A DNA stretch of 64,000 nt from Thermoplasmata archaeon. Lineage in GTDB: Archaea > Thermoplasmatota > DTKX01 > DATEUP01. Under the pieces are notes generated by a model that was not told the origin of the DNA, ran no database searches, and worked only from the letters and a program-made list of their open reading frames with translations. The stretch spans positions 17,709 to 81,708 of the forward strand of contig JBGQKI010000005.1 of NCBI GenBank assembly GCA_041499475.1, in the 5' to 3' direction. Of this stretch, positions 14,882 through 50,204 are shown in pieces; position 1 is the first letter of the stretch, and every line of letters starts with the position of its first letter. The position numbers and the translations under genes are program-made.

Positions 14882-14904
14882 CCAGGGGAAAAATGGGGAG
14901 TTGT

Positions 14905-15101: not shown

Positions 15102-16392
15102 CTACTTCTGCTGCTCGGTCTCGCCTGCACCCGCTTCGCCCTCGCCCAGCCTGTCCACGAGCGACTTCGCCTGGATCTCGTGCTTCTTGGCCTCGTCGTA
15201 GACCTGCTCGATCTTGACGTCCGCATAGCGCTCGGCGATCATCGACACCAGCGTGTGGTTGAACTCGGCAAGCAGCCCCGTGACCGCCTTGATCGTCGAG
15301 GAGGCCGCAAAGAACTCGATCGTGTTGTCCTCGCGCACCGCCGCACGGATCACGATCTTGTAGCCCTTGACCTTCGTCTCGCCGTAGAACCACGCCTCGC
15401 CCGAGAAGGGGTTGTACGAGACGAACTCGCGGACCATGTGCACATCGTGGGACAGCACGACCGACTTGCACACATCGAAGATGTCCTTGTGCTTCACATA
15501 GGGCGGCAGCTTCGTGATCGTGTAGACCTTCGAGTCCTTCTCCTGCAGCTCGTTCTCGATGAGCCGCTTCAGCATCGCCGTGTTCGCGTGCTCCTTGGTG
15601 AAGAAGAGCGGGCAGACGACCTCGGCCTTGCGCGTCTTCATCGTGACCGACTGCAGCACGCCCTTGTAGTCGCGGAAGCGCACGATGCCGTCGATGTTGG
15701 TCTCCGTGCAGATCTGCGGGTCGAAGTAGAACGCGACCGACGACTTCTCGCCGGGGTTCAGCACGTTCAGCATCACGCGCGCGCCGCTCGTCTTGTAGCT
15801 CGCCGGCTCAATGCGCTGCAGGCGCAGGACATCCTCGTTGTAGTCGATGTCAAGGGTGACCTTCGTCACGACCGCCTCGGTGTCGTTCTTGACGCCGACC
15901 TTGAGGCGCACGAAGCCTTGGAAGAACTCGAGCTGCGAGAGCACCTTGACGTCCTTCGTGGTCGTGGCGGCAAGCACGTCCTGGCGCGTGATGCCCGAGG
16001 TGAGGGCAAGCACCGGCGCGAGGTACTGGCTGATGTCCGCGAATCGGTTCTGCTGGCCGTCCCAGGCCTCGATGATGCCCGCGTAGGCATACTCGATCTT
16101 CTCGATCGCCGTCTGGAGCTTTTCCTGGAGCTCCTTGTCCGGCTCGCCGAAGGTAATCACGGCCGCGTAGAAGTTATTGCCACGCTCGATCACGATCTGG
16201 TTTTCGCCGTAGCCCATCTTGTTGAGCTCGCCCTCGGCCGAGAACGAGTCTTTGATGAACTGGGTGACGGCCGTGAACATCGACGAGACGAGCTCGGGGT
16301 CGCCGAGCTGCTGCTGGCCGATGTCGGTCTTCGAGTAGATCATGCGGCCGTCCTGGTAGATCACGAAAAGCCCCTCAATCACGAAGGTCGCG
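15102..16392 (-). repeat. Conserved cytoplasmic-module coding block, copy 1 of 3 (dispersed direct repeat)
   Basis: Encodes ATFVIEGLFVIYQDGRMIYSK...GEAWFYGETKVKGYKIVIRA...LLAEFNHTL...GAGETEQQK. It is collinear with 22119-23415 and 35155-36440. An exact 31-nt string is shared by all three copies (15371-15401, 22394-22424, 35421-35451). Confidence 0.85.
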
Positions 16393-19300
16393 GCCTTCGC
16401 GGGCTTGACCGGCTCGATGATCGGCGGCGCGGGGCGGGCCGCGGCGGCTGCGGCGGCCACACCGGCTCCCAAGGCCACGGCGGCCGCAGCCGGCGGCAGC
16501 GACGGTTTGGCCGCGGGCACGGGCACCTGGACGACTTCGACTTGGACTTCCTCTGCGGCAAGCGCCGATGGGCGCGCGGGCGCCAAGGGGGCTGCAGGGG
16601 CCGCGGCAATGGGCACGGCCTCGTCGTCCTTCTTGCGGCGCCGCATCACGACGATGCCGACAACGCCGGCACCTAGGGCGGCAAGGAGCAGGATAAGCAG
16701 CAGCAGCGGGCTGGAGGCCACCGACGGCGACGCGGGGGCGACCACGCTGGTTTGGATCGTTTTTTGTTCGCCCTGGCCGCTCGGGTCCGTCACGCGGAGC
16801 GTGACTGTGGTCGTCCCGGCTTTGAGGCCCTTGAGGTGCAGCGTCCACACCGGCCCATCGTGGGTGACCGAGACGCCGAGCACTTGGCCGTCGCCCGAGG
16901 TCGCGAAGAAGAAGAGGTCCGGGAAGTTGTCGTCCGGGTCGGCCGCGAAATTGCTGTCCATGACCAGGGTGACCTCCTTGCCCTCGTCCACGCTGAGCGA
17001 GGCCGGGACCTTGCCAGAGGCAAACAGCGGCGGCAGGTCGGCCGCCCGCAGGCGGATCGTGTAATTCTGCCAGACTTGGATGAGACCGTCGGAGAGCTCC
17101 AGTTTCACGTTGAACACGGTGCCGTCGGCGGTGCCCGGCGGGATCTGCCAGTGCACGGTGTGAGCCGAATCCACCGTCATGCCGTCGGGCGCAGCGCCAA
17201 GCGCCACCGTGAGCTGGTCGCCGGTGTCCGGGTCGCTCACGAGCGCCGCGTAGGTGTACGATTGGCCGGGCGTGCCGTTCTGGACCGGGAACGAGTTGAA
17301 GAAGGGCGCGCGGTTCGCGGGGTTTGAAACGCGCGTGACAGTAAGGACGAAGGACGAGTCCGTGTGGGACAGCCCGTCCGAGACGCGGAACGAGATGTTG
17401 TACACGCCGTACGAGCCCGTCGTGGTCGGCCACACAATTACGCCGGCCGAGCCGATCGACATCGCGTTCGGGCCCGACAGGAGCGTCCACGTCCACGTGT
17501 CGCCGGTATCGCTGTCCACGAGCGTTGGCGCCCACTCGTAGTTGTCTCCAGCGTGGATCGTCGTGATCGGCGTCCCCGTGATCGCCGGGACATCGTTGAC
17601 GCGCAGCGGGATGGTGAGGAGCGCCTCGTTGCCCGTCGTGTCGAAAACATGGAGGGTGAGCGAGTAAGTGCCCGGCGCGATGAATTGGAACGAGAATTGC
17701 GCGCTCCGGATCACCTGAGGCGTTCCGTAGGTAAACCGCCATTCGAACACGAGCGCGCCGGGGACGTTGTCCGTCGAGCCTGATGCATTGAGCGTGACCG
17801 TGTCGCCCTCGTTGAACGGCCCGGGGCCGCCGGTGACGCTGATGGCGGGCGGGGTCACATCGAGCGCCCGGAGGGTGTGCTCAAGGGTCGCCATGTTCCC
17901 CGTGCGGTCGTAGACGCTCAGCGTGATGTTGTACGCGCCGGGCTCCGCGGGCGTGAAGTCCGTGACCATCCCAGAGAGCGACCATGGGCCGCCCGGGCCG
18001 TCGATGTTCCAGTCGAAAGTGCCGTTGGTGCCGCCGTCCCAATAGGCGTCGTTGTCGGTAGATCCCGAAGCGTCGAGCGTGATGCGCGCGTCCTCGTTGA
18101 CCGTCGCATTGACGCTGAAGGCGGGGACGGGGTTCGTGGTGTCTTCCACCCAAAGCGTGAAGTTGACCGAGTTCGCGTTGCCCGCGCGGTCCGTCACGAC
18201 GAGGTTGATATTGTACCCGCCCGGGGTGTCGAAGGTGTAGGAGGGGCTCGACCCGGTGAGCGTCACCAGTGCAAGCCACCTCGCCGGGTCGAAGTTCCAC
18301 TGGATGTTGGGGAGCGGGTCGAGCTCGGCAATGAGGTTGCCCGCAAAGGTGTAGGGCACATCTTCGTTGACGAAGAACTCGACAAACGCGGAGAGGTCGG
18401 GCGCGCTGGAGTCGACCCAGAAGTCCCAGGATACGACCGTGACGTGGCCGGCCTCGTCGTACGCCGAAACATTGAGCGTGTAGTGGCCATCGGCGAACGC
18501 GGTCGTGTCGACGATCCAGCTGCCGCTGATGTTGGTGAGGTTGCCGGTGTATGACCAGCCGCCGCCGACCTCGCTTGCCGCGTACACCACCCTTGTCAGG
18601 TTGAAGTCGTCCGAGGCGGTGTAGGTCACCTGCGTCCCGGGGAGCGTGTAGTTCAAAATCGGCGAGGTCCGCATAAGGGAGGGTGCGGAGCCGTCGATGT
18701 AGAATTTCCAGGTGTACGTCGCGCTGTTGTTCAGCGAGTCGTTCGCGAAGAACACGATCGTGTGATTGCCGGGCCCGAGCCCGAGGAAGCCGGTGTCAAT
18801 CGCCCAGGGCAGCGTCGTGTTGAGGAACGGCGTGCCGTCCACGGTGTAGCGCCACGCGAACAGGTGCGGGTCGCTCACATTGGCGCGGATGACCACGCCA
18901 GCCTGGAGCGCCGGGAACCCGAGCGCCGGCACACTCGAGAAGACGGGCGCCGTCGAGTCGAACTCGAAGGAGAAGGTGCGCACCACCGTCGGCACGGCAA
19001 GCGTGGCGTCGAGGATCGTGTTGTCCTTCGCGGTGATCGTGATGTTGTGCCACCCGTCCGCCCACCCCGTCGTATTGATGTCGTGCGGGTAGGTGAGCGC
19101 GCCCGTCACGGTCGTCTTGTCGTCAAAGAAACTCACCGTGTCGAAGAAGTTCGAGACGGAGAAGTTGAGGACCGTGCCCGCGCGGACCAGCGACCTGTCG
19201 GGCGGGCTGGTGAGCGCGACCGCCGGGGGCCACGGGTCCATTAGCGCGTAGTTGTCGTTCTTGCCGCCGCCGATCGGGTAGACGGGCGCGTCCTTGATCC

Positions 19301-21881
19301 CGTCGTGGCCGACGAGGACGTTCTGGCCAGGGCCCGTCTTTTCATCCACAAACCCTCCGGCCGCGTACGCATAATAGTTGCCGGCCGCCGGGTAGCCCCC
19401 GTCCCAGGTGCCATATCCGTTCGTGTTGGAGACCGCGCCCCCGTAGAAGTTATTGTGGACCACGGTGATCGCATAGCAGCCCGTGTCCACATAGAACGAG
19501 GTCGTCGAAAGCGAGACATAGGTCGAGTTGTAGGTTCGGTAGTTGGGCGAGCTGATGAGGTACGCGCCCCTCGGCGAGCCCGCGGCGAAGGAGCCGTTGC
19601 GCACCGTCACATTGTCCGAGCTGTCGAGGTACAAGCCCTCCGCCGCCGGGTTCATCGCCGTGACGTTCGAGTAGAGCACGTACTGCGAATAGTAGTTGTA
19701 AAAGCCCTGCGAGGTCGAATTCAGCGACAGGATGTCGAAGTAGCTTACGTTGTTGGAAGATTGGGTGAAATAGCCGCCCCCAATGGCGAGCGACCGGGTC
19801 ACCCGGACGAATGATGAGCCGTCCACCGAAAACGCGTTCCAGAGGATGCTCGGCATCCCTATGTTCGACAGGTTTACGAATTGGCTGTTGTAAATGTACG
19901 CCCCCTGGCCGATATTATGGCCAATGAAGGTGTCCAGCGTGACGTTGTTCGAGGCGGCCAAATAAAATCCATATCCGCCGCCGATCTGGCCATACACGTC
20001 GAGCCCGCTTACGTTCACGTCCCGCACCGTGTCCAAATACAGGCCCTGGTTGAGGTTCTGCGCGATCCCCGTGGCATTGGAGATTACGATGCCCTTGGTA
20101 CCCACGAAGCGCAACGGGGTATCGGCGGTCACCCACACGTCCCGGACCGTGATATTTGCCGACCGGGAAGCCTGGATGGCCACCGCGTTGTAGGTGGACT
20201 CGTTGATGCCCGAGACCAAGATGTTGGACGAATTGAAGATGAAGACGAGCGCGGCCGTCGAGGGCACGCTCACATTGGTCGTGTTGGAGACGAAGTAGAC
20301 CGGCTTGCCATCCGCGGTGTTGTCCGAGGTGATGTTTTGCCACGTGCTGGGGCCGTCAAGGTTGTCAATGTACCAGTTGATCGGGCGGCTCGTGTTGACG
20401 AAGGTGTTGTTGGAGATTTGGTAAAACTCGCCTGTAATGGAAATTCCCGTGTAGGCGACATCCTCGAATCGGTTGTTTGCAAACACCGGGCCGTACTGGT
20501 ACGACCACAAGCTCATCCCGTACTGCACCCGGTAGAAGGTGCAGCCGTCGAATACGTTGCCTACACCCCCGTACAGGATCACCGCAGAGTCGCTGAGATT
20601 GGAGAAGGTTACGCCCTGGACGTGGGCTGAGCCGAGGCTGTCGATAAAGAGCCCTTCGACGGAACCGTTGACGGTGCCGCCTGTCCAGTTGAGCAGGCCG
20701 TTCGTGTGGACGGCGTACCCGCCCGAGATGTTGCTGAGGCTGGTGTTGACAAGCGTCAGCAGCCACGTGCCCCCCAGCGCGAAATAAATCCCGTCGTTGG
20801 GCGTATCGGCAAAGGTGGAGTTGGTGATCGTGAGGTGCTGGCCGTAGGTCCACTGGACGGGCAAGGAGACGTTCCGGAACGCTCCCCCGTTGAGGTACAT
20901 CAGCATGGAAGCGCCCGACTGGGGCCCAAGGCCGGTGCCCGTATCGGTCACGTTCAGGCCGTCGAAGACAACCGTCCCGCCCGTGGTCGAATAGAAGGCC
21001 GTCGTCACGTTGTGAATCGTAAAGTTGCGGAAGGTCGTGAGCGTGTCGTACACGGCCCACCAGACTCCGTACGTCGCGTTCTCGATGAAGACGTTTTTCA
21101 GCGTGCTGTTTCCGGCGCTGAGAAAGTAATAAAGGGCGGCGCGGGAGGCGCTCGACCCGTAGAGACTTACGTTCGCAACGCGGGCGCCCGGGCCGCCGAG
21201 GATCAGCTTCCAGGTCGTGGTAGCGCTCGATGTATTGACCTGGAGGCCATCGATGCTGATCCCTGTCCCCAGCGAGTAGAACCCGTCCTGGGAGTTCGTG
21301 ATGTTCACGCCACGGACGTTGAGGCCACTCTGAAGGCAAAGGCACCCGAAGCTGTTGTTGCCTTGCAGCCTCAGGTCGACGAGGGCGGCGCGCGCCCCGG
21401 TCTGGGCGTCCATCCCATAATTTGTGCCTACGAGCGTCATGCTGCTGATGTTGATGTCGGAGCCGCGCAGCGCGAACGGGGCGTTAACCAGCAGGCCGTA
21501 AACGATGACTCCCTTTTGCGATTCTCCCACGAGCGAGATGCCGTTCGCGCTGATGGTCCAGTTGGCTTGGTAGGTGCCGTTGTAGATCTTCACAATGTCC
21601 CCGGAGGTGAGCGGGAGCAGCTCGACTTCGAGGATGGTCTTGAACTGGCAGTTCGCAAGGGATGTCGCGGGGTAGTCGTCGTCCACCTCGATGTACCGCA
21701 GCGGGCAGTTGCTCTGGCCCCAGCCGGCCGAAGCGGGCGTCGAGAAGGCGGCAAGTGCGGCGATCGCGATCAGAAGAATCGCCGATGCAAGGCCGAGGCG
21801 AAAGGCCATCCGCGCGCGACTGTTTTGCGACCTTTGAGAGGCTTTCGAACTTGCGGCGCGAGCGCTGTGCTGGCCAGTCAT
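15102..21881 (-). CDS. Giant type-I membrane surface protein 1 (beta-helix + 3 Ig-like repeats + PKD/cadherin-like stalk + TM + conserved cytoplasmic module)
   Basis: 2259-aa ORF. The N-terminus is basic and then hydrophobic (MAFRLGLASAILLIAIAALAAFSTPASAG). About 800 aa are PbH1-type beta-helix turns, including STWQNITSDNTADGKPVYFVSNTTNVSVPSTAALVFIFNSSN. Three 85-95-aa Ig-like repeats follow PWPP (nt 18400-19236). PKD-like motifs are present (TLDASGSTDND, TLNASGSTDN), as are two cadherin-like He_PIG-type units (..AAPDGMTVDSAHTVHWQIP..). The TM helix is SPLLLLILLLAALGAGVVGIVVM followed by RRRKKD (nt ~16646-16710). The C-terminal ~430-aa module is shared with the next two genes. ATG 21881 has a GAGGGG element 8 nt upstream. 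Confidence 0.9.
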   Translation of the reverse strand: MTGQHSARAASSKASQRSQNSRARMAFRLGLASAILLIAIAALAAFSTPASAGWGQSNCPLRYIEVDDDYPATSLANCQFKTILEVELLPLTSGDIVKIYNGTYQANWTISANGISLVGESQKGVIVYGLLVNAPFALRGSDINISSMTLVGTNYGMDAQTGARAALVDLRLQGNNSFGCLCLQSGLNVRGVNITNSQDGFYSLGTGISIDGLQVNTSSATTTWKLILGGPGARVANVSLYGSSASRAALYYFLSAGNSTLKNVFIENATYGVWWAVYDTLTTFRNFTIHNVTTAFYSTTGGTVVFDGLNVTDTGTGLGPQSGASMLMYLNGGAFRNVSLPVQWTYGQHLTITNSTFADTPNDGIYFALGGTWLLTLVNTSLSNISGGYAVHTNGLLNWTGGTVNGSVEGLFIDSLGSAHVQGVTFSNLSDSAVILYGGVGNVFDGCTFYRVQYGMSLWSYQYGPVFANNRFEDVAYTGISITGEFYQISNNTFVNTSRPINWYIDNLDGPSTWQNITSDNTADGKPVYFVSNTTNVSVPSTAALVFIFNSSNILVSGINESTYNAVAIQASRSANITVRDVWVTADTPLRFVGTKGIVISNATGIAQNLNQGLYLDTVRDVNVSGLDVYGQIGGGYGFYLAASNNVTLDTFIGHNIGQGAYIYNSQFVNLSNIGMPSILWNAFSVDGSSFVRVTRSLAIGGGYFTQSSNNVSYFDILSLNSTSQGFYNYYSQYVLYSNVTAMNPAAEGLYLDSSDNVTVRNGSFAAGSPRGAYLISSPNYRTYNSTYVSLSTTSFYVDTGCYAITVVHNNFYGGAVSNTNGYGTWDGGYPAAGNYYAYAAGGFVDEKTGPGQNVLVGHDGIKDAPVYPIGGGKNDNYALMDPWPPAVALTSPPDRSLVRAGTVLNFSVSNFFDTVSFFDDKTTVTGALTYPHDINTTGWADGWHNITITAKDNTILDATLAVPTVVRTFSFEFDSTAPVFSSVPALGFPALQAGVVIRANVSDPHLFAWRYTVDGTPFLNTTLPWAIDTGFLGLGPGNHTIVFFANDSLNNSATYTWKFYIDGSAPSLMRTSPILNYTLPGTQVTYTASDDFNLTRVVYAASEVGGGWSYTGNLTNISGSWIVDTTAFADGHYTLNVSAYDEAGHVTVVSWDFWVDSSAPDLSAFVEFFVNEDVPYTFAGNLIAELDPLPNIQWNFDPARWLALVTLTGSSPSYTFDTPGGYNINLVVTDRAGNANSVNFTLWVEDTTNPVPAFSVNATVNEDARITLDASGSTDNDAYWDGGTNGTFDWNIDGPGGPWSLSGMVTDFTPAEPGAYNITLSVYDRTGNMATLEHTLRALDVTPPAISVTGGPGPFNEGDTVTLNASGSTDNVPGALVFEWRFTYGTPQVIRSAQFSFQFIAPGTYSLTLHVFDTTGNEALLTIPLRVNDVPAITGTPITTIHAGDNYEWAPTLVDSDTGDTWTWTLLSGPNAMSIGSAGVIVWPTTTGSYGVYNISFRVSDGLSHTDSSFVLTVTRVSNPANRAPFFNSFPVQNGTPGQSYTYAALVSDPDTGDQLTVALGAAPDGMTVDSAHTVHWQIPPGTADGTVFNVKLELSDGLIQVWQNYTIRLRAADLPPLFASGKVPASLSVDEGKEVTLVMDSNFAADPDDNFPDLFFFATSGDGQVLGVSVTHDGPVWTLHLKGLKAGTTTVTLRVTDPSGQGEQKTIQTSVVAPASPSVASSPLLLLILLLAALGAGVVGIVVMRRRKKDDEAVPIAAAPAAPLAPARPSALAAEEVQVEVVQVPVPAAKPSLPPAAAAVALGAGVAAAAAAARPAPPIIEPVKPAKAATFVIEGLFVIYQDGRMIYSKTDIGQQQLGDPELVSSMFTAVTQFIKDSFSAEGELNKMGYGENQIVIERGNNFYAAVITFGEPDKELQEKLQTAIEKIEYAYAGIIEAWDGQQNRFADISQYLAPVLALTSGITRQDVLAATTTKDVKVLSQLEFFQGFVRLKVGVKNDTEAVVTKVTLDIDYNEDVLRLQRIEPASYKTSGARVMLNVLNPGEKSSVAFYFDPQICTETNIDGIVRFRDYKGVLQSVTMKTRKAEVVCPLFFTKEHANTAMLKRLIENELQEKDSKVYTITKLPPYVKHKDIFDVCKSVVLSHDVHMVREFVSYNPFSGEAWFYGETKVKGYKIVIRAAVREDNTIEFFAASSTIKAVTGLLAEFNHTLVSMIAERYADVKIEQVYDEAKKHEIQAKSLVDRLGEGEAGAGETEQQK
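18400..19236 (-). repeat. 3 x ~85-95-aa Ig-like coding repeats (gene 1)
   Basis: Units are delimited by ...FDSTAP / ...IDGSAP / ...VDSSAP and begin right after YALMDPWPP. This is the same family as the 17- and 27-copy arrays in genes 2 and 3. Confidence 0.75.
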
Positions 21882-21940
21882 GATGAACTACCCCTCTTCA
21901 GGAGGACTCCGTGAGAAGTCCGGTAGGCCGCTGAACATGA

Positions 21941-21958
21941 CCTTATATAATAACTTCG
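21941..21958 (-). promoter_or_regulatory. BRE/TATA box for giant gene 1
   Basis: The minus strand reads GTCGAAGTTATTATATAAGG (TATA 21943-21953). It is the most AT-rich spot in the 237-nt spacer, about 65 nt upstream of ATG 21881. Confidence 0.5.
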
Positions 21959-22118
21959 ACGGGGGTTTCGCCCGCGGCCACGGTCGTTGGCGCGTTACGC
22001 GCCGCACAGAACGCCGAAGTCTGGCACTGAACCTGGCTGTCTAGGGGCCGCCATCGGAAGGACGAAACGCCCCGGCCAGCGCGGTTTCGAGTGGGCACCC
22101 AAGCGTGGAAACTTGGCG

Positions 22119-34790: not shown

Positions 34791-34883
34791 CCTTCGCTTC
34801 CCCCCGGTGAGCACAGCCTGGATCGCGAGGCAATATGGGGAATTGCCTGGCCATCCAGAATATGGCGGCCACCCCAAGCACGT

Positions 34884-34898
34884 CTAATATACGTTTCG
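34884..34898 (-). promoter_or_regulatory. BRE/TATA-like box for giant gene 2
   Basis: The minus strand reads CGAAACGTATATTAGACG, about 95 nt upstream of ATG 34790. A second candidate (CCCCATATTGCC, 34829-34840) lies about 45 nt upstream, so the true promoter is ambiguous. Confidence 0.35.
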
Positions 34899-34963
34899 AG
34901 CGGGCACCGCGCCAGGAAAAGGTCGTTAAGGCGGCTTCGCCCCGCCCATTTTCGGTTTTTCGC

Positions 34964-35018
34964 AAAAGGTGGGAGAAGGCCCACCCCGGCTCGCCGCGGC
35001 CTTGCTGGCCACAAAAAA
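34964..35018 (-). terminator. T6 run and hairpin+TTTT downstream of the giant gene 3 stop
   Basis: On the minus strand the stop TGA (35034-35032) is followed 14 nt later by TTTTTT (35018-35013). Next comes the hairpin GGTGGG-CCTTCT-CCCACC (34985-34968), immediately followed by TTTT (34967-34964). Oligo-T tracts are the usual archaeal termination signal. Confidence 0.55.
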
Positions 35019-35031
35019 GGGGTCCGCCTGC

Positions 35032-44000: not shown

Positions 44001-47000
44001 CGCTACCATTGTTCCAGGTGACCGTGGAGAGGTGCGTGTCGGACACCGATAGGTCGATGAGACGGCCGGCGGGAATCACGGAGTTGTTCGCCGGCGAGTT
44101 GAGCGTGATGGTTGCCAAGGTGGAGTCCATCACGAAATTGAACGAACGCGTCCTCGCGTTGCCCGCGGTGTCCGTGGCGACGATGACCACCGTCACTGAC
44201 CCGTCCGCCCACGCGGTCGTCGAGACGTTGTAAGGCGCGCCAAGCGCGTTGGAACCGGAGCCGTTGTTCCAGGTGGCCGTGAACGCGTTCGCGTCCGTGA
44301 TGGCAAAAGAGAGCGTTGTGCCCCCCGCGATGACGGAGTTGTTCGCGGGCGAGGCGAGCGAGACCGTGGGGGCCGTGCTGTCGAAGGTGAAGCTGAACGT
44401 CGAAGTCCTGTTGTTGCCGGCAAGGTCGAAGGCGCGCACCGTGACCGTCGTGAGGCCGTCGGCGAACCCCGCGGTCGAGATGTCGAACGGCGCGGCGATC
44501 GCGTTCCACGTGGAGCCGGTCGTCCAACTCGCATTCTGGAAGTTCGTGTCGCTGACCGACAAGTCGACCGTGGTGCCCGCCGCGACCACGGAATTGTTGG
44601 CGGGCGTGTTCAGCGTGATGGTGGGGAGCGTCGAGTCGAAGGTGAAGGTGAACACGCGCGCGGTGCGCCGGCCGAGCACATCGATTCCAACGACGGTGAT
44701 GTCCGTGGGGCCGTCCGCGAAACCTGTCGAATCGACATCAAAGGGCGCGGAGAGAGATGTCCATACAAGCCCCTTCAGCCAACTCGCGTTCTGGAAGTGC
44801 GCGTCAACGATGTTGAAGTCGAGCGTAGTGCCGGCTCGGATCACGGAATTGTTCGACGGAGTCAACAGTGACACCACGGGCGGATTGCCGTCGATGCCGT
44901 AGCTGCGCGTCACATTCGCGCTGTTGCCTGCTGTGTCCCAGGCCGTCACGAACACCGTGTAGTCGCCGTCCGGCCAGCTGGCGGTCGTGAGGTTGAACCA
45001 CGCCCCCGACTGGTTCCATACGCTCATCGTTCCGTTCCCGTTGTTCCACGTCGCATTGAACGCGACGTGGAGGTCGTTGACAAAGAAGGGGAGCTCGGTG
45101 CCCGCGGCGTAGGTGCCATTGGCGAGCATCCCCGAAAATGTGGGGCCCGTGGTGTCGATCGCGATCACGAAGAATTCGCTGTCGCCCGCCGGGGTGAGGT
45201 CGGTCGCGTTCACCCAAATCACGTGAGCCCCTTCCGACCACCCCGTGGTGTTGATCTGGAACGGCGCCGCGAAGGCAACCGCCGACGCGTTGTCGATCGA
45301 GTACTTCACGGTGTCAAAGTAGAGCGAGACATTGAATTGCAGGACCGCGCCGGGCCGCACCGCGCTCTGGTTCGCCGGGGATTCGAGGCGGACGCGCGGC
45401 GGCCACGGGTCGACCAGCGGGTACGGGTCGTTGCGCGTGGGGGTCGCCGCGTAGGGGTTGTCCACGATGCCGTCGCCGCCCGCTGTCGCCTGGAGCGCCC
45501 CGCTCTTGATGTCGGGAGATGTCCACGTCGACCACCAATTGCCACCCCAGGGGTAAGCGCGGAACCAGGTGACGACGTCGTACGAGTCGTAGGGCGCGCC
45601 GTACCCTCCGCCGTAGCTCAGGTTGAAATTGTTGTGGTAGGCCGTGACATTTTGCACGTAGGAGGAACCGATGTAGATTGTCGCATAGGAGTAGGGGCCA
45701 TACGTGTTGTTGGACACCGTCACATTCGAGACCGTGCTCGACGGGTCGTAACCGTAAAGCTGGACGGAGTACGAGGTGTACGACAAGGTGTTGTTCTCCA
45801 CCACGAACCCGTCGTTGTACCCGCTCGCCACGAGCACCGAGCCCGTCGAGGTGTAGTTCGTGAGGTCGCCGGCGGTGAGGTTGCGGATGGTGACGTTCGT
45901 CGAGTAATACGCGCTGAAGATGGTGTAGGCGCGCGGAATCACCGAGTCAAGCAGCGACAGGTTGGCGCTCGAATCGCTGTAGACGAGGTCGTACACGCAA
46001 CACGTCGTGACATTGAGCGTGAGGTTGCGCATGGTCACATTCTGCGACTGGATCGCGTGCACGCCGTAGTACCCGGTGTCGAAGGTGATGCTGCTCACGT
46101 TGACGAAGCGCGACCCGAAGAGCAGGACTCCGTCGCCCGCCTCGGAGATCGTGAGCCCGCTTGCGGTCCCGCTCGTCACGTTGGCGAAAATCACCATCGC
46201 GCTGCTTGCCGGCGCGCTGACGTTCGTCGCGTTGATCCGGTAGAAGATCGGCCGGCCCTCGATCGTGTTGTTCGCGGGGATCGTATGGTTAAAGTGGGAG
46301 AGGTAATAGCCTGAAATTTGGACTGACCCCCAATTGGAGAGGAAGCTGTTGTTCCAAACCACATCCCCCGAACTCCAGTCCAGCGTAAGGCCAATGTACG
46401 AGCCGTTGGTGAACCGGCTGTTCGTGATGTTCGAGACGTCGGTCCCGGAGAGGTAGAGGCCGTTGCCGGTGTTGTTGAACGAGCTGTTGTCGACCGTGAT
46501 CGACCGCGAGTAGTACACCTGCATCCCGCTGTAAAGCGAGCCGTTCATCACGTCGCGCACGGCGGTTAGGTTGGTGCCGTACCAGAACTGGGACCCATAC
46601 TCACCGCCATTCACGCGCGAATCGGTAAGCGTCGAGTTGACCGCGTACTCGGCGAGCAGCCCGTAGAAGGAGGAGCTGATGGCGACATTGATTACGTTGA
46701 TTCCCGTGCACTGGAACAGCCGGATGCCGTGCCACTCGTGGTCGATGGTGACCCCGGAGACGAGGTAGTTCGTCGTGTTCGCAAGGATTGCAAGTCCGGC
46801 GCCCGTGGGGACCGTCCCCCCGCTTGCGTTGACGAGGTAATAGACGGGTTTCCCGTTCACCGTGTTCGTCGTGTTGACCCGGTGGTAGAACTGCTCGATG
46901 GAGTACGCCTCAAGGTGGAAATTGTAGGTATTGCCCGACAGCGCATTCGAGTCGAGCGTGAGGTAGGAGACGTATTCGATGTAGAACCCGTTGAGGCCGT

Positions 47001-49908
47001 TCGTCACGGTGTTGCCGTTGAAGGTCGAGCTCAGGTGGCCGCTGTTAACGTAGATCCCGTTGTTGGCCGTGCCGTTGACGATGTTCGATGCAACGAGCGC
47101 CCCACGGCCGCCTGAAAGGTGGATGCCGTCGTTGCCCCCCTGGATGTTGTTTCCACTGACGGTGAGGTTGATTGAATTGAGGAGGTTAATGGCGCTGCTC
47201 TGCGCGTTGGTGATGGAGTTGGTTGAAACCGTCACGTTCGTGCAGGTATCCAAGTGGATGGCCTGGTCGAAGATGTCGCGCAGCGTGTTGCCCGTAACCG
47301 TCGAGTTGTCGACGAAGGACAGCCAGATGCCTTCGGTCGTGTTGTTGATTTGGTTGCCCGAGACCGTCACGTTCACCATGGGGTCGAGGAAAAAGCCGTA
47401 CGAGAAGCCGGTGATGTTGTTCCCCTGCAGAAGGAGGCGCGACTGCAGGCCCTCCACCTGCACCGCCTTGTCCGCGTTGCCCGCTGCGCCGGTGAACCGG
47501 CTCGATGTGATGGTGAGGTTCCCGGAAGAGACGTCGCGCACTTGGAGCCCCCAGTACCCTAGACCCGAGAAGGTAGCGTTTCTAAGGAGCGTGTTCCAGG
47601 TGCTGCCGTCGAGGTAAAACCCGTAAGAAAAGTTACCGTACGTCGAATTCGTGAAATTGAGGTCCGACCCGTTGTAGAAGTAGGCCGCCTGGCTCCCGCC
47701 CGGAGCCCCCGTGGCGTTGATGCGGTTGAAGGTCGAGCCTGTGGTGGTTTCGAAGTACCCGAACTGGTAGATCCCCGTGACCGTAATGTTGTCGAAGAAC
47801 AAGCCGCTTGCAGTATAGACCTCGGAGAAGTACTGGCAACCGATCACGCAGGTCGAGGTCACATTCACGACGCTAAGCGAGCCCATCGAGTACAGTCCGA
47901 GCGACTCGTAGGTGATGTTGAGCCACGTGCCGTTGATGAGGACGATCTCCGAGGAGGTGTCCACCTGGAATTGGTATGCCGAGTTGTTGGTGGTCGACTG
48001 GAGGACGGTGACGCGCTGCGACTGCGTGATGTACAACCCCCAATTCGAGCCGTTGAACACGACGTTCGAGAACGTCACGTTAAACGAGAAGGCCACCTCC
48101 GAGGCATAATTCGATGAATTGGCCGCCGCCAAATACGCGGAAGTTACGTTCGTGACGTTGGTGAGCAAGACCCACGAGAGGTTCGTCGCCACCGCGAAAC
48201 CGGAGGCGTTGAGGTAGGAGCGCAGGAGCCGCCCCTCCCAGTAGTTGTCGGCCGTGATCGTCCACTGGAAGTCGGCGAGCGTGCTGCCCCCCACGGAGAG
48301 CGGCCCTGTCGAATTGGTGATCACATTCAGCGAGGCGCGGCCATACTTGGAGCTGTAGAAGCTGTAACCGCCGTAGCTGTCGTTGAGCGTGTTGTTTTGG
48401 ATGAGTGCGTAGTCCGAAGAGTAGAGGTTCCCGCCGACCGCGTGTTGGCCCGTGTTGTTGAGAACCCGCGCTCCGGCGACCGACTGGAATTGGAAGCCGT
48501 ACGCGAAGTAGTAGGGCGGCAGTCCGGAAGGCCCGGCGGTGGACGAGTTCTGAAGGGTAACGTTGGCGCTGTTCTGGACGTAGACGGCTGTCCCGTAGCC
48601 GGTGAAGTTGACTCCCGTGAGCGTGAGGTTCGTGGTCGAGTAGGCCCACACGGCGTAGACGTAGTAGAACACGCCCGGCGTGGTGCTGGCCGTGAGGCCG
48701 GCGAGCGCGAGGTTGTTGACGCGGATTAGCTCGACGGCGTAGCCTGCATGGGAGATGTTTTCTGCGGGGATGGAGAGGTTCGTGACGTTGGACGCAAAGA
48801 TCCAACCGGCGCCCGAGGGGACGGTGATGCCCGTCGTGTTGGTGTAGTAGTAGACGGCCTTGCCTTCCGCTAGGTCCGAGCTGGCCACGTTGTGGCCGTA
48901 GTAGGTGCCCGAGGTATCGGAGGCGGGCTGGACCGCGTAATCGGAGCTGCAGTTCCAGACGTCGTTGGAGCTCAGTGTTTCGCTGACGCTGTAGTAAATC
49001 TGGACGCCCGAGCCGCTCATGTTGTCGATGCGGTTGGACGTGACGGTTGAGTTGTGGTCTGAATCGAGGTACACACCATACCCGTTCGCGCTCGAATTGC
49101 CAACGTGGTTTCGGTCGACGACCGTCGCCAGCGTGTTCGTGAGGAAAATGCCGTAGTGGGAGAGGCTGACATTCCCATCCCGGACGATCGCCGTCGTCGT
49201 CCGGTCGAGGTAGGCCCCGTAGTAATTGCCGATGAAGGTGTTGTTCATGGCCGTCAGGTTTGCGCCGCGGCTCGCGTAGATGCCGGCGTTAAGGTAGCCG
49301 CTCTGGTTTCCGAAGTAGCACGCCGACACCGTGACATTGTTGGCCAGGTTGACGAACACCCCGCGCGTATTGGCCTCGAAGGTGAGCGAGTCGATGTTGA
49401 GGTTGCTCACGGGGGAGGATATCTGGACGCCGTAGGTTGCGCCGGTGACCGTGAAGGAGGAGAGGTTCACGTTGTTGGAGAGGATGTTCAGCCCGTTGCC
49501 CAAAGGCGGGTCGATGACGGTGCTGTTCCTGGAGTCCCCTACGATATTGAGCGTCTTGTTGACCGTGACGCTCTCGGCGTAGGTCCCCGAATAGATGTAG
49601 ATCGTGTCGCCGTTGCTCGCGTTATTGATGGCGCGTTGGATCGTGGTCCACTGGTTGAGGCCCGCGTTGTCGGCGCTGTAGCTGTCGTCGACGAAGCGGA
49701 TGGTCGCGCCTTCCGAAAGGTGCGGCGAAGCGGCAAGGACGAACGCGAAGAGCAGCGTACCGAGGATGAAGAGTCGGAGCGCCCTCGCGCTGCGGCTCGA
49801 CACCAGCGCCCCGCGAGTCCTCGGCTCGGCGGCTACGCTTGGCGTAGTGTATTGTCGAAACGACACTGACGGCCCCCCAGAAACGGGCGGTCTAAAGTTG
49901 TGCCCCAT
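35032..49908 (-). CDS. Giant type-I membrane surface protein 3 (beta-helix super-modules + 27 Ig-like repeats + stalk + TM + conserved cytoplasmic module + Gly/acidic tail)
   Basis: The ORF is open from 50253, but the first ~115 codons are Arg-rich and overlap the divergent sdh anchor gene. ATG 49908 sits inside a TATA-like box, so GTG 49866 or GTG 49803 (M-SSRSARALRLFILGTLLFAFVLAASPHLSEG) may be the real start. That gives about 4920-4960 aa. The beta-helix region spans nt ~45400-49700, with NTVNGKPVYYLVNASGGTVPTGAGLAILANTTN and NNTIEGRPIFYRINATNVSAPASSAMVIFANVTS. 27 x 85-aa repeats span nt 38467-45398. Then come 3 PKD-like + 2 cadherin-like + 1 Ig-like domain. The TM helix is IGLLPLLGLAVAAGTAGFFLLV followed by RGRNKKRRE (nt ~36616-36681). 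The cytoplasmic module spans 35155-36440. An extra tail AGEGASGAPLPPAIEPKGDGGAKGDRDTPEPDDEGKGGGGL follows. Confidence 0.9.
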   Translation of the reverse strand: MGHNFRPPVSGGPSVSFRQYTTPSVAAEPRTRGALVSSRSARALRLFILGTLLFAFVLAASPHLSEGATIRFVDDSYSADNAGLNQWTTIQRAINNASNGDTIYIYSGTYAESVTVNKTLNIVGDSRNSTVIDPPLGNGLNILSNNVNLSSFTVTGATYGVQISSPVSNLNIDSLTFEANTRGVFVNLANNVTVSACYFGNQSGYLNAGIYASRGANLTAMNNTFIGNYYGAYLDRTTTAIVRDGNVSLSHYGIFLTNTLATVVDRNHVGNSSANGYGVYLDSDHNSTVTSNRIDNMSGSGVQIYYSVSETLSSNDVWNCSSDYAVQPASDTSGTYYGHNVASSDLAEGKAVYYYTNTTGITVPSGAGWIFASNVTNLSIPAENISHAGYAVELIRVNNLALAGLTASTTPGVFYYVYAVWAYSTTNLTLTGVNFTGYGTAVYVQNSANVTLQNSSTAGPSGLPPYYFAYGFQFQSVAGARVLNNTGQHAVGGNLYSSDYALIQNNTLNDSYGGYSFYSSKYGRASLNVITNSTGPLSVGGSTLADFQWTITADNYWEGRLLRSYLNASGFAVATNLSWVLLTNVTNVTSAYLAAANSSNYASEVAFSFNVTFSNVVFNGSNWGLYITQSQRVTVLQSTTNNSAYQFQVDTSSEIVLINGTWLNITYESLGLYSMGSLSVVNVTSTCVIGCQYFSEVYTASGLFFDNITVTGIYQFGYFETTTGSTFNRINATGAPGGSQAAYFYNGSDLNFTNSTYGNFSYGFYLDGSTWNTLLRNATFSGLGYWGLQVRDVSSGNLTITSSRFTGAAGNADKAVQVEGLQSRLLLQGNNITGFSYGFFLDPMVNVTVSGNQINNTTEGIWLSFVDNSTVTGNTLRDIFDQAIHLDTCTNVTVSTNSITNAQSSAINLLNSINLTVSGNNIQGGNDGIHLSGGRGALVASNIVNGTANNGIYVNSGHLSSTFNGNTVTNGLNGFYIEYVSYLTLDSNALSGNTYNFHLEAYSIEQFYHRVNTTNTVNGKPVYYLVNASGGTVPTGAGLAILANTTNYLVSGVTIDHEWHGIRLFQCTGINVINVAISSSFYGLLAEYAVNSTLTDSRVNGGEYGSQFWYGTNLTAVRDVMNGSLYSGMQVYYSRSITVDNSSFNNTGNGLYLSGTDVSNITNSRFTNGSYIGLTLDWSSGDVVWNNSFLSNWGSVQISGYYLSHFNHTIPANNTIEGRPIFYRINATNVSAPASSAMVIFANVTSGTASGLTISEAGDGVLLFGSRFVNVSSITFDTGYYGVHAIQSQNVTMRNLTLNVTTCCVYDLVYSDSSANLSLLDSVIPRAYTIFSAYYSTNVTIRNLTAGDLTNYTSTGSVLVASGYNDGFVVENNTLSYTSYSVQLYGYDPSSTVSNVTVSNNTYGPYSYATIYIGSSYVQNVTAYHNNFNLSYGGGYGAPYDSYDVVTWFRAYPWGGNWWSTWTSPDIKSGALQATAGGDGIVDNPYAATPTRNDPYPLVDPWPPRVRLESPANQSAVRPGAVLQFNVSLYFDTVKYSIDNASAVAFAAPFQINTTGWSEGAHVIWVNATDLTPAGDSEFFVIAIDTTGPTFSGMLANGTYAAGTELPFFVNDLHVAFNATWNNGNGTMSVWNQSGAWFNLTTASWPDGDYTVFVTAWDTAGNSANVTRSYGIDGNPPVVSLLTPSNNSVIRAGTTLDFNIVDAHFQNASWLKGLVWTSLSAPFDVDSTGFADGPTDITVVGIDVLGRRTARVFTFTFDSTLPTITLNTPANNSVVAAGTTVDLSVSDTNFQNASWTTGSTWNAIAAPFDISTAGFADGLTTVTVRAFDLAGNNRTSTFSFTFDSTAPTVSLASPANNSVIAGGTTLSFAITDANAFTATWNNGSGSNALGAPYNVSTTAWADGSVTVVIVATDTAGNARTRSFNFVMDSTLATITLNSPANNSVIPAGRLIDLSVSDTHLSTVTWNNGSGAVTLGSPFDIPTPGWPDGSTNITLIALDAAGNSRTSVFRFVFDSTPPSVVLSSPANNSVVLPGAVLDFTVTDTNLNNATWNNGSGNNSLTTPFDVSTTAWADNQFSITVTATDLAGNVRSIIVVVSVDSAPPTITLNQPANGTTFGSGTLIDLSVTDLHFTNASWNNGSSPNALSSPFDIDTTGWAAGNITVAVNATDAAGNTASRAFSFTIDNSFPAVILVTPSNNSVIRPGTTLDFSVVDNDLNTTTWSNGSAPATLAAPYDVSTTGWSDGHINVTINATDNSSHTVSVIFHFVIDSTAPVVLLVSPSNNTVISAGVQLSFSFTELNFASARYNIGGGNVTLTAPYKVDSTGWADGEVNITVTAFDLAGNSGAATFHFTVDSTPPAITLGTPSNNSVIAPGTTLDFNVSDAHSFSVTRDNGTGPVALGSPFDVSTAAWTDGGVDVIVVATDVAGNVQSRLFHFTIDGTAPTVSLTAPSNNSVIAAGTTISFSVNDANLAAVTRNNGSGALGLASPYDLATPGWPDGSTNITVIATDQAGNSRTVVVRFIFDSTAPTVTLGAPANNSVIRANTTLDFTVTDANFASATWNNGSGSNALTSPFDVSTANWPDGSTTVTVTATDAAGNSRAVSFQFTLDSTRPTISLNSPANSTVIRAGTALDFAISDANGVAAANWTNGSGPFALASPFDVATAGWADGAFDVTVSAVDPAGNAATQLFHWTLDSTAPTITLVAPANNSVIRPATAIDFTVADANGVASALWNNGSGPNTLPSPFDINTTGWAEGTVTVTVNATDAAGNLRVSTFAFTFDSTPPVISLVSPSNNSVVVAGTTIDLSVTDAHFSGATWNNSSGANALPSPFDINTTGWANGPFNITVTATDLAGNARTDVFRVIIDSTPPNITLTSPANDSVISAGTVLDFTVVEPNLNTSTWNNGSGAVSFSPPFDISTASWADGSVTVTVTAVDLAGNSRSASFHFTMDSTAPIVGLNFPANNSVITPGTDLDFDASDLYLNTVSWNNGSGANALPSPFDVSTVGWPEGPKNVTVTATDRAGNTRAATFHFVFDATPPTISVVTPSNNSIILAGTTIDLTVTDANFQGATWNNGSGANTLASPFDISTSGWADGVYNVTVIATDLAGNVRTVVLRYTFDTTPPTVTLLSPSNNSYIRAGATLDLLVTDLTTLTVTWDNGSGPNALASPFDIVTSGWPDGPTNITVTATDAVSLQRIRVFHFTFDSVLPTVSLLSPSNNSFIRPGVQLNFSISDTNLNTATWDNGGGGTTFATQWNISTVGWADGPINISVDATDLAGNLRSRTFHLTIDSAVPSVTLSSPTNNSYIPSGTLLNLSITDTNLDTATWDDGTGAQSFAAQWTISTTGWAEGPVNITVTADDLASNVKTRIFHFTIDSIFPVLNLLAPSNNSVFEAGVLINFTISDTNLNTATWDDGSGAQPFATNWNISTGGWPDGPRNLTVSAADLASNVKTRFFHFTIDSTLPTLNLNGPTNDTYIVAGTVVNLTISDANLDQTSWEANGAGPQAFATQWEIPTAGWADNSYNITVRASDLAGNVRLRYYRFWVDSTKPIIQLNATTQTNNSYFDQRNFTTVQFDVIEAALSTATWTTGAAPTPLAAPFAINVSAWPDGAYTFTVVATDRAGNSVTRWFSFTLDSVAPVVNAVAWENTYFSNGTVLSGTLFDLNLLWSHAYIDAAAGVNGSAQNYSLSTAGLGESSHTLHVEAFDRAGHLTTRDFAFAIDSLDPVIAVTDPADGAHVPRGTLLNITATDNNAINVTWQRDGGALLAANGTGMPRSVDTTSWPDGRYLVHFIVRDPAGHRVDTNITIVIDSSKPSLPSVSALPLNQTYDEDRDITLDASSASDGPNPLPPGSFLWTFSTRAGPLALDQRTGSMPTYRWADPGDYAYTLAITDLAGNSDARTYSVHIADATPPTVSLLVNATVDEDTSVAFVGDLSRDNDYLFLRNTSNCGGASYDIVDSAGASVNFPLPSSGVGALYPCLDLTHVFANPGLYTVRLTVVDPAGLSNASSVVVRVRDRTAPVLSGVSIAGRANAGDNLTFDASVVSDNDLENVSLITYTWLVKAAGSTVDTLTGSSAHHIFPLPGAFVVNLTARDSSGNAASREFAVYINDVPALQTALPQAMVSGTTYDLDLVVADSDAGDSINISFASTPWAVTQTLTAPRVVHIRWTPTGYGPKDWNLTLSDGWATTTIVTAANVSLPPSATNLPPEIKSTPVQEVLPSVMYTYDVNAEDPSNDVLYYALVVYPAGMSIDRVTGLITWVHGVTSLSPQQTWTVNVSVWDGYNTVYQNYTIRWRPGGNHAPTIDGPQAWASLAVEKDQQIIEHLELHVQDQDDAVSGLLYEVTFVSSSVASARVEKTSAGADLVVAGLQVGNATVRIKVSDASGGNATRDITVRVTAPPGSPAGSEGTIGLLPLLGLAVAAGTAGFFLLVRGRNKKRREGAAAAKAQIVSGVAAPTIAGEAGTVVLTGQAAAAASAAAALAAGPAEKKITYTIEGLFVIYKDGRMLYAKTDMGQAKFEDPELVSSMFTAVTSFIKDSFQSEGELNKMGYGDNQIIIERGRSVFMAAIVYGEPDQEFHDQMKAAIENLELSYAGMIEEWDGMMDHFSDMEVKLVGITSLTAGITRREVQLATTKQEVLMLSELEFFQGFVRLKCGIKNNTPSVITKATVDIEYNEDVLRLARVEPAAYRTAGAKVLLGVLNPGEKSSVAYYFDPQICTESQIDGVCRYRDASGVLYTVAMKTRKAEVVCPLFFTKEHANTAMLKRLVEAELGEKDSKVFEIQKIPPYIKHKDVFDLIKSVVNAHDVQMVREFTKYNPFHGEAWFYGETKVKGYKIVIRATVIEETNAIEFFAASTNMKAITGLLAEFNHTLNSMVIEKYSDLKIAQIFDSQAKAEIEKRTLMSTMSSADLAGGETEQAGEGASGAPLPPAIEPKGDGGAKGDRDTPEPDDEGKGGGGL
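35155..36440 (-). repeat. Conserved cytoplasmic-module coding block, copy 3 of 3
   Basis: Encodes ITYTIEGLFVIYKDGRMLYAK...GEAWFYGETKVKGYKIVIRA...LLAEFNHTL...AGGETEQ. Confidence 0.85.
38467..45398 (-). repeat. Tandem array of 27 x ~257-bp (85-aa) Ig-like coding repeats (gene 3)
   Basis: I counted 27 units between PWPPRVRLESP and IVIDSSKPSLPS. A typical unit is TITLNSPANNSVIPAGRLIDLSVSDTHLSTVTWNNGSGAVTLGSPFDIPTPGWPDGSTNITLIALDAAGNSRTSVFRFVFDSTPP. The copies are more diverged from each other than those in gene 2. Confidence 0.85.
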
Positions 49909-49920
49909 ATAAGGGTTCCC
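49905..49920 (-). promoter_or_regulatory. BRE/TATA-like box for giant gene 3
   Basis: The minus strand reads GGGAACCCTTATATGGGGCA. It is similar to GAAACCCTTATGAAGG (441-456) and, on the plus strand, AGAACCCTTAAATC (10045-10058). Its centre is about 44 nt upstream of GTG 49866. Confidence 0.4.
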
Positions 49921-50182: not shown

Positions 50183-50204
50183 CGGTCGAGAACGCTCCAA
50201 AGGC

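Follow-up and report, generated by a model that had tools for sequence, protein, structure and literature searches.

The subject of this report is a row of three giant genes on contig JBGQKI010000005.1 of a Thermoplasmata archaeon (GenBank assembly GCA_041499475.1), which we analysed within a window of 64,000 nucleotides (nt; contig positions 17,709 to 81,708, G+C content approximately 65%; all coordinates below are those of the window). On the minus strand, three long open reading frames (ORFs; 15102-21881, 22119-34877, and 35032-50253) follow one another head to tail and are referred to here as genes A, B, and C. The three ORFs, the two spacers between them, and a TATA-like element in each spacer had been reported in the original prediction, and all were confirmed by the ORF coordinates and the spacer sequences, as was a T-run in the second spacer.

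15102-21881, minus strand: gene A, 2259 amino acids (aa) from ATG 21881; ORF with Pfam matches to Beta_helix, NosD, PKD, He_PIG, and Big_13; orthologues at the homologous loci L001, L002, and L005
21882-22118, minus strand: spacer between B and A, 237 nt; TATA-like TTATATAA at 21950-21943
22119-34790, minus strand: gene B, 4223 aa from ATG 34790, with the ORF extending to TTG 34877; orthologues at L003, L005, and L006
34791-35031, minus strand: spacer between C and B, 241 nt; T-run at 35018-35013 past the stop of C, TATA-like TATATTA at 34891-34885
35032-49908, minus strand: gene C, 4958 aa from ATG 49908, with the ORF reaching 50253; C-type orthologues at L003 and L004

The element TTATATAA lies 62 nt 5' of the gene A ATG and TATATTA about 95 nt 5' of the gene B ATG, both being A/T-rich elements amid G+C-rich DNA; judging from these TATA-like boxes, it is plausible that A, B, and C form three separate transcription units. 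The sole TATA-like element upstream of C, CTTATATG, overlaps ATG 49908, and the start of gene C is therefore uncertain, with GTG 49866 or GTG 49803 as alternatives that may be the true one. A 16-nt motif common to both spacers, GGTGCCCRCTCGAAAC (minus strand, 22084-22099 and 34893-34908), was dropped, since it was found in none of the fetched loci, orthologous ones included, and it is probably without general significance.

The three encoded proteins share one order of parts, namely a signal, a β-helix head, immunoglobulin (Ig)-like repeats, a stalk, a transmembrane (TM) helix, a linker, and a C-terminal module. As originally predicted, this order was recovered by Pfam, hydropathy, and the sequence itself, and hydropathy and sequence likewise confirmed the single TM helix with its basic stop-transfer stretch and the Ala/Pro-rich linker in each protein. 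Along A, B, and C, Pfam places Beta_helix/NosD in the N-terminal third or half, followed by Big_13-type Ig repeats, PKD/PKD_4, He_PIG, and Big_9.

21741-21797, minus strand: A, N-terminal hydrophobic signal/anchor, aa 29-47; hydropathy peak 2.42, with a basic stretch before it and TPASA, then G, after it
19230-21701, minus strand: A, β-helix head, aa 61-884; Pfam Beta_helix/NosD; the fastest-evolving part
18411-19229, minus strand: A, three 85-aa Ig-like (Big_13-type) repeats, aa 885-1157; repeat model
16704-18410, minus strand: A, stalk of PKD, He_PIG, and Big_9, aa 1158-1726; Pfam; collinear with the B and C stalks
16647-16703, minus strand: A, TM helix, aa 1727-1745; hydropathy 2.98, followed by RRRKKD
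16404-16646, minus strand: A, Ala/Pro-rich linker, predicted to be cytoplasmic, aa 1746-1826; sequence
25332-29690, minus strand: B, array of 16-17 85-aa Ig repeats, aa 1701-3153; repeat model; Tandem Repeats Finder period 255 nt, 73% matches
23535-23591, minus strand: B, TM helix, aa 3734-3752; hydropathy, followed by RRSR
38479-45402, minus strand: C, array of 27 85-aa Ig repeats, aa 1503-3810; repeat model
36616-36672, minus strand: C, TM helix, aa 4413-4431; hydropathy, followed by RGRNKKRRE

Repeat copy numbers were obtained with a hidden Markov model built on one 85-aa unit, which found 3 strong copies in A, 16 strong and 1-2 degenerate copies in B, and 27 copies in C, reproducing the 3, 17, and 27 copies counted previously. 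The period is strictly 85 aa in all three proteins, and the corresponding 255-nt DNA units show only 72-73% matches. Pfam matches to YEATS, HYR, GspA_SrpA, and Y_Y_Y within the arrays were taken as summed weak matches of the Ig-like repeats and not as real domains. The stalks of the three proteins are collinear across approximately 570 aa with 26-29% identity; for the stated composition of 3 PKD, 2 He_PIG, and 1 Ig domain, the domain types and the collinearity stood, whereas the exact count is only approximately backed by Pfam. The heads are 26-30% identical to one another. Between A and its orthologues, identity amounts to 86-88% in the module, 49-62% in the repeats, 43-54% in the stalk, and 28-46% in the head, which describes a steep gradient of conservation, with the distal tip evolving fastest and the cytoplasmic tail slowest.

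The C-terminal approximately 430 aa, with 61-66% identity among A, B, and C, are indeed far better conserved than the ectodomains, as had been claimed, while the DNA encoding these modules is only 72-76% identical. The modules and their predicted parts are as follows.

15105-16403, minus strand: A, whole conserved module, 433 aa, predicted to be cytoplasmic; identity to the B and C modules as above; family searches
16071-16388, minus strand: A, domain 1 of the predicted fold, longin-like, module residues 6-111; Foldseek matches to AP sigma and zeta-COP
15621-15950, minus strand: A, domain 2, predicted Ig-like β-sandwich, module residues 152-261; appendage matches; invariant DPxIC and VVCP; sub-threshold Cohesin match
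15228-15581, minus strand: A, domain 3, predicted helix-grip (TBP-like) platform, module residues 275-392; motifs EAWFYG and TGLLAEL
22122-23420, minus strand: B, module predicted to be cytoplasmic, last 433 aa; alignment to the A and C modules
35155-36453, minus strand: C, module predicted to be cytoplasmic, aa 4486-4918; alignment to the A and B modules
35035-35154, minus strand: C, 40-aa Gly/Pro/acidic tail after the module; sequence

Concerning the claim that the module belongs to no named family, the part that stood is the one about sequence. No Pfam match was found by hmmscan even at E≤10, except for a sub-threshold match of Cohesin on the β-sandwich (E 0.0016), and there was no match in NCBIfam, in PDB sequences (searched with a single sequence and with a profile), or among the PADLOC models. 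Furthermore, the longin-like part gave no match to Longin, Clat_adaptor_s, Robl_LC7, or related Pfam families, a profile search with this part alone retrieved only nine short fragments, and the Pfam and NCBIfam scans revealed no recognisable enzymatic or nucleotide-binding motif in the module. As for structure, the claim needs to be qualified, since AlphaFold2 and Foldseek indicate that the fold is not an orphan.

The AlphaFold2 model of the module, based on a 71-sequence alignment, has a predicted local distance difference test (pLDDT) score of 89.4 and a predicted template-modelling score (pTM) of 0.70, and is divided into three domains. Residues 6-111 adopt the β-β-α-β-β-β-α fold of a longin domain (block pLDDT 52-96, with the minimum in residues 31-60). 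The β-sandwich is followed in the same chain by the α/β platform, which consists of a helix and then S1-H1-S2-S3-S4-S5-H2, the strand and helix order of TBP/helix-grip folds. A Foldseek search of the module against the PDB returned 59 matches at E≤1e-3, the best of which are the appendages of γ-COP (9qpq_H, 7.2e-10; 1pzd, 2e-8), AP2 α (1b9k, 2.1e-8), and AP2 β2 (1e42, 2.6e-8), all with a probability of 1.0 and approximately 250 aligned columns spanning both subdomains. After the appendages ranked μ-adaptins (longin and β-rich domain), and the small longin subunits AP1 σ, AP1 σ3, and ζ-COP (4p6z_S, 9ddt_B, 5mc7_A, 3tjz_C) were matched with template-modelling scores (TM-scores), normalised to the target, of 0.44-0.55. 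Because the two folds match in kind and order, we refer to the unit of β-sandwich and platform (the Ig+platform part) as appendage-like. The module is thus predicted to consist of a longin-like domain, an Ig-like β-sandwich, and a helix-grip platform, resembling an AP/COPI appendage preceded by a σ/ζ-type longin, and a common descent of the module and the coat-adaptor appendages is plausible.

Within the predicted cytoplasmic β-sandwich, two cysteines, found in DPxIC and VVCP (residues 232 and 264 of the A module), are invariant or nearly so across the family. According to the conserved columns and the AlphaFold2 model, the invariant Trp of EAWFYG lies on a platform strand. The AP/COPI appendages bind short linear motifs (DPF, FxDxF, WxxF) by way of conserved aromatic residues in their platform and sandwich. 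Past the platform, a flexible segment of low pLDDT carries a recurring acidic motif, approximately LLxDKYxExE..AGETEQ, which is present at the ends of A, B, and C (e.g., 15105-15180) and of many homologues; it may serve as a short linear motif that a partner recognises or that docks in trans.

The membrane topology was assessed by hydropathy, sequence rules, and homologue architectures. All three proteins begin with a basic stretch and a hydrophobic signal, and towards the C-terminus each has one strong TM helix with positive residues on its C-terminal side, so that hydropathy and sequence describe type-I single-pass proteins, oriented N-out/C-in by the positive-inside rule. N-X-S/T sequons number 3.5-4.5 per 100 aa in the ectodomains, 2.3-2.5 times as many as shuffled sequences would give (z about 8-14); in the tails they number 0.4 per 100 aa, a tenfold lower density that agrees with the shuffled sequences. 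Moreover, the full-length module homologues P0043 and P0037 have neither a signal nor a TM helix, and their genes are preceded by a clear intergenic region; eight other homologues begin with the Ig+platform part and continue into a TM helix, among them P0067, where an FGE-sulfatase domain lies beyond the helix. Some family members fuse the module to cytoplasmic-type CHAT protease or Zn-ribbon domains. These four independent indications (positive-inside rule, sequons, soluble and inverted homologues, and CHAT or Zn-ribbon fusions) agree in supporting a cytoplasmic location of the module, in line with the originally proposed placement of the ectodomain outside and the C-terminal module inside.

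Homologues of the module form a large family. A search with module A yielded 68 clusters, all metagenomic, and those with a named source are from Thermoplasmatota, apart from one Methanoperedenaceae protein. Among 1.84 billion representatives, 6145 proteins matched the profile at E≤1e-3, and 488 of them did so at E≤1e-30; most of the 150 top matches carry the module at the extreme C-terminus of a protein of 0.8-2.3 thousand aa, with lengths of up to 4.9 thousand aa. In a census of roughly 240 fetched family proteins, a TM helix was located just upstream of a full C-terminal module in 113 of the 131 members with more than 120 aa before the module, while 72 are short proteins with the Ig+platform part alone. 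Within GTDB species genomes, 47 loci were found, all of them in uncultured Thermoplasmata-type metagenome-assembled genomes (MAGs); several MAGs encode 7-8 or more paralogues, and tandem pairs are frequent. The Ig+platform part alone also reaches Methanoperedens, Methanosarcinales, Methanomethylovorans, and Methanoregula, in short proteins, some with Zn-ribbons. The ectodomains of the family differ, with He_PIG, PKD, fn3, and Big domains. Judged by profile search and census, the combination of a variable ectodomain with a constant intracellular cassette, first noticed in A, B, and C, holds across this large family.

Several homologues have architectures or neighbours of their own. In a subfamily comprising P0058, P0082, and P0195, the module or its Ig+platform part lies directly upstream of a CHAT (caspase-like) protease domain, and P0195 also matches the PADLOC model BovA via its CHAT part. 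In P0067, from Methanoperedenaceae, the Ig+platform part is joined to the FGE-sulfatase domain by a coiled coil and the TM helix, and FGE-sulfatase genes are neighbours of Ig+platform genes in Methanomethylovorans and in a further archaeon (L048 4491-10639, L057 9001-10340). A stand-alone Ig+platform protein of 311 aa (P0033-type; L050 10001-11446, L051 7131-8576), 53-57% identical to the corresponding part of A, is encoded at a single conserved locus in several Thermoplasmata MAGs; 4 nt downstream of its gene lies a conserved 168-aa ORF without a Pfam match, which could encode a partner.

A survey of gene neighbourhoods and phyletic spread, proposed along with the original prediction, was carried out by clustering all ORFs of the 47 loci after removal of antisense shadow ORFs, and it found Thermoplasmata-type MAGs and no common neighbour. 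The sole recurring associations are those with FGE-sulfatase domains (fused in P0067, adjacent at L048 and L057, in methanogen and Methanoperedens relatives) and with CHAT domains (fused). Flanking genes in the window have housekeeping functions and encode Nre, a DEAD helicase, a radical SAM protein, a succinate dehydrogenase flavoprotein, UbiA, ETF, an acyl-CoA dehydrogenase, and a malate dehydrogenase. Loci syntenic with the window, at 70-90% nt identity, were found in MAG SMAG_U8344 (L003 with C then B, L006 with B then A, L001 with A then Nre) and in two other Thermoplasmata MAGs (L005 and L002, with B, A, then Nre).

Taken together, the sequences largely show A, B, and C to be paralogous giant type-I surface proteins, probably N-glycosylated, with a fast-evolving head, a variable spacer, and a constrained folded cytoplasmic tail. 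The β-helix head is of a carbohydrate-binding or adhesin type, and as a rough estimate, the spacer of 3, 17, or 27 Ig repeats together with the stalk would set the heads at three heights above the membrane. Going by domain counts, such proteins would make up a fibrous coat in tiers of roughly 30-130 nm. The best explanation overall, to which we give about even confidence, is that the tail of these surface proteins is a cis-linked protein-interaction hub. Every paralogue, whatever its ectodomain, would offer one docking surface, either to other tails or to a machinery in the cytoplasm that all paralogues share; this machinery would position, cluster, retain, or sort the paralogues in the membrane and would also anchor the long ectodomains mechanically. 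We favour this reading because of the conservation pattern, the expansion of paralogues with interchangeable ectodomains, and the known roles of the closest folds: appendages are hubs that bind short peptide motifs of accessory proteins (PMC3597702; PMC11188069), and longin domains serve small GTPases and the assembly of coats as platforms (PMC11188069).

Several observations weigh against a hub of this kind. The similarity to adaptins is, in the models, one of fold only, as Pfam at E≤10 and the family profile against PDB sequences gave no match to Alpha_adaptinC2, Alpha_adaptin_C, B2-adapt-app_C, or Coatomer_g_Cpla. The appendage matches have TM-scores of only 0.2-0.4 (0.30-0.41 when normalised to the target) at a root-mean-square deviation (rmsd) of 12-15 Å and do not reach a TM-score above 0.5, because the relative orientation of the two subdomains differs. 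When the platform was modelled separately (pLDDT 88.7, pTM 0.83), Foldseek returned 0 PDB matches at E≤1e-3 and ranked CENP-N, the spermine-synthase N-domain, and aIF2α above γ-COP; 1pzd came 11th (E 6.8e-3), yet with the top query TM-score (TMq, 0.41; rmsd 4.3 Å, 118 columns), and by this model the platform alone comes about as close to other helix-grip-like domains (CENP-N, aIF2α) as to γ-COP and may not be specifically adaptin-like. The topology, moreover, is drawn from rules and homologue architectures. No partner gene emerged from the neighbourhoods: apart from local synteny among close relatives, nothing is shared by the 47 loci and by the surroundings of seven more homologues, which are of the stand-alone, soluble, and Zn-ribbon kinds. 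None of these neighbourhoods contains a Vps4, ESCRT-III, SPFH, kinase, small GTPase, or cytoskeletal gene. Finally, the CHAT fusions and the FGE-sulfatase association suit signalling at least as well as scaffolding.

That A, B, and C are transmembrane signalling receptors with true outside-in coupling, as originally proposed by analogy with integrins and cadherins, is a possibility to be weighed, although we consider it unlikely. A ligand or load on the ectodomain would alter the clustering or conformation of the tails and thereby act on an effector, be it a CHAT protease or, via the longin domain, a small GTPase. The position of the module or its Ig+platform part directly upstream of CHAT domains, the predicted layout of P0067, with Ig+platform on the cytoplasmic side of the membrane and an extracellular FGE-sulfatase domain beyond, and the stand-alone copies that adjoin FGE-sulfatase genes all speak for it, as such "sensor-TM-module" and "module-effector" layouts are typical of signalling parts; in eukaryotes, longin domains regulate GTPases. 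Yet no kinase, GTPase, CHAT, or other effector gene adjoins A, B, C, or their orthologues, the module is devoid of the enzymatic and nucleotide-binding motifs searched for above, and PADLOC holds no defence-system model for it. Furthermore, a single-pass TM helix followed by a disordered Ala/Pro linker of 40-80 aa would be a poor conformational relay, and therefore only clustering could signal.

Somewhat more doubtful is a lineage-specific self-assembly, in which the tails would bind one another, perhaps through the conserved acidic peptide at the C-terminus of one tail and the platform of the next, and build a lattice beneath the membrane to keep the surface coat together. The likeness to adaptins would then be a convergence of two very common folds, the Ig sandwich and the helix-grip. 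Such a lattice would agree with the seemingly unspecific matches of the platform alone, the sub-threshold Cohesin match of the β-sandwich, the missing adaptin signal in the Pfam and PDB-sequence profile searches, the absence of a separate partner gene at the 47 loci, and the flexible conserved tail of many members, and the soluble full modules (P0043 and P0037) as well as the P0033-type stand-alone proteins could co-assemble with membrane-bound members. Convergence, however, sits poorly with the best PDB matches of the two-subdomain unit, which are consistently appendages (probability 1.0, E to 7e-10), and with the adjoining longin domain, which repeats a combination reported for Asgard archaea.

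We regard as improbable the further-reaching idea that the tail genuinely shares ancestry with the longin and appendage portions of the coat adaptors of eukaryotes and acts as a cargo-borne adaptor outside the Asgard archaea, recruiting a membrane-remodelling machinery (ESCRT-III/Vps4 or another coat) and sorting proteins into membrane domains, protrusions, or extracellular vesicles; if true, a cargo-adaptor system would exist in a prokaryote, and vesicle-coat building blocks would occur in Thermoplasmata, a group for which their loss has been inferred in the literature. An assembly artefact, with a single repeat-rich gene split into three by misassembly or with copies collapsed at the conserved 3' ends, might be suspected from the long arrays of 255-nt repeats and from the metagenome-type origin of the window, as judged by its closest relatives, and was rejected as very nearly negligible, given that modules and repeat units differ as much as stated above at the DNA level and that the order C-B-A is kept in independent Thermoplasmata MAGs.

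The proteins were also compared with known systems. The module shares with the appendages of AP2 α, AP2 β2, and γ-COP a β-sandwich followed by a helix-grip platform (E 7e-10 to 3e-8 over the whole appendage) and the predicted position on the cytoplasmic side of the membrane at the end of a flexible linker. It differs in the lack of sequence-profile similarity, in the orientation of the subdomains, and in its setting, since the appendages of AP and COPI sit on the hinge of a HEAT-repeat trunk in a heterotetramer, whereas the module is carried by a TM helix and an Ala/Pro linker, with the longin in the same chain and no solenoid. Similarly, its longin shares the strand and helix order of the σ/μ-adaptin and ζ-COP longins of the SNARE-like superfamily, but is fused in cis to the appendage-like unit and is predicted to be tethered to the membrane.

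In archaea, Makarova et al. 2024 described Ig and TBP-fold "adaptin appendage regions" in neighbourhoods of the endosomal sorting complex required for transport (ESCRT), one of which is joined by a TM linker to an extracellular-type GOLD domain, as well as Asgard proteins that combine Vps28-C, appendage, and longin domains; Thermoplasmata were inferred to keep a minimal ESCRT only and to have lost adaptin-like components (PMC11188069). Domains of adaptor complexes in Asgard archaea were also reported by Eme et al. 2023 (PMC10307638). The GOLD fusion renders too strong the assertion, made with the original prediction, that archaeal surface proteins are without a large conserved cytoplasmic domain (PMC11188069). 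Compared by fold and description, the ESCRT-linked Meth_adaptin and Halo_adaptin (PMC11188069) resemble our module in the Ig and TBP-fold region, and the Asgard proteins in the combination of longin and appendage; it is also suggestive that our family reaches proteins of Methanosarcinales and Methanoperedens, some with Zn-ribbons. Unlike these adaptins, however, no member examined lies by Vps4, ESCRT-III, or SPFH genes, and the module is the tail of giant surface proteins with many paralogues.

Giant prokaryotic adhesins with β-helix and Ig/PKD domains are alike in their domains (Beta_helix/NosD, Big_13, PKD, He_PIG), variable copy numbers, tandem genes, and fast-evolving distal parts, but are anchored by PGF-CTERM/archaeosortase, S-layer, lipid, or a short TM tail, where the proteins described here have a conserved region of approximately 500 aa, predicted to be cytoplasmic. 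PGF-CTERM or S-layer-type anchoring was rejected for A, B, and C, as 470-530 residues follow the TM helix, in contrast to a protein encoded elsewhere in the window (556-4809), which ends in ...SPGFDGAYAAVALAAVAVVGAIGRRRRTL. Integrins and cadherins, in turn, resemble A, B, and C in the type-I topology, in a large ectodomain built from modules, and in a cytoplasmic part for which binding to proteins inside the cell is expected; they are not homologous, and their short, unstructured tails bind separate adaptors, whereas here folded adaptor-like domains would be part of the chain itself. Literature searches on adaptin, appendage, and longin domains in archaea or Thermoplasmata yielded no description of this Thermoplasmata family or of its fusion to giant surface proteins, which thus appears to be undescribed. 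Neither the type of ectodomain nor the fold class of the tail is new; the novelty lies in their being combined, in a setting without ESCRT, in the lineage concerned, and in how far the family has expanded.

Beyond the triad, the left part of the window contains further genes. At its edge lies the probable start of a fourth family gene, which begins at ATG 445 or GTG 418 (MKAAGEGRAIGVKVRWLFLGSMAALVALAAF...) and leaves the window, with L039 as the syntenic locus.

1-445, minus strand: probable fourth family member, N-terminal part; by blastx, 143 aa align at 40% identity with the N-terminus of the module-bearing protein L039_4142_11119 (2325 aa)

The protein encoded at 556-4809 (minus strand; 1417 aa) matches Pfam Ice_binding (E 1.6e-65) and has a PGF-CTERM-like ending, so that an archaeal surface protein with ordinary anchoring is encoded in this region as well. 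Next to it, at 4968-6257 (minus strand), lies a gene for a 429-aa protein in which three winged-helix-like repeats (EWRPKDLL...NYALKKL...KRSEGRAAFY) stand in tandem and the C-terminus is Cys-rich and Zn-ribbon-like; this protein gave only weak Pfam matches to DsrD, PaaX, Rpc34, and HTH_HVO_0163 and is conserved at the syntenic loci L001, L002, and L039. The ORFs 8637-10169, 13402-14361, and 14331-14942 (minus strand) were not accepted as genes, as their low-information translations are rich in Arg, Gly, Pro, and Ala and without a Pfam match, and they are probably high-GC shadow ORFs; a homologue of ORF 14331-14942 nonetheless recurs at syntenic loci. Approximately 1.2 kb downstream of gene A (13416-14330 in particular) is therefore without a confident gene assignment.

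If the interpretation given here is correct, a widespread lineage of uncultured archaea would build its surface from many interchangeable giant ectodomains plugged into one coat-adaptor-like module, the hallmark of a family of thousands of sequences that has neither a Pfam nor an NCBIfam entry. It would provide a second archaeal context for appendage-like and longin domains, one that is neither Asgard nor linked to ESCRT, and the published inference of component loss in Thermoplasmata would have to be qualified. Given that the tip evolves fastest and the tail slowest, the heads are likely targets of environmental or viral selection. The module itself, predicted to be a soluble and well-folded domain of 430 aa, offers a handle on what underlies the archaeal membrane, be it a scaffold of the cell cortex, a machinery for sorting, or a partner in signalling, and the family as a whole suggests a variable cell surface that is tied to one common internal machinery.

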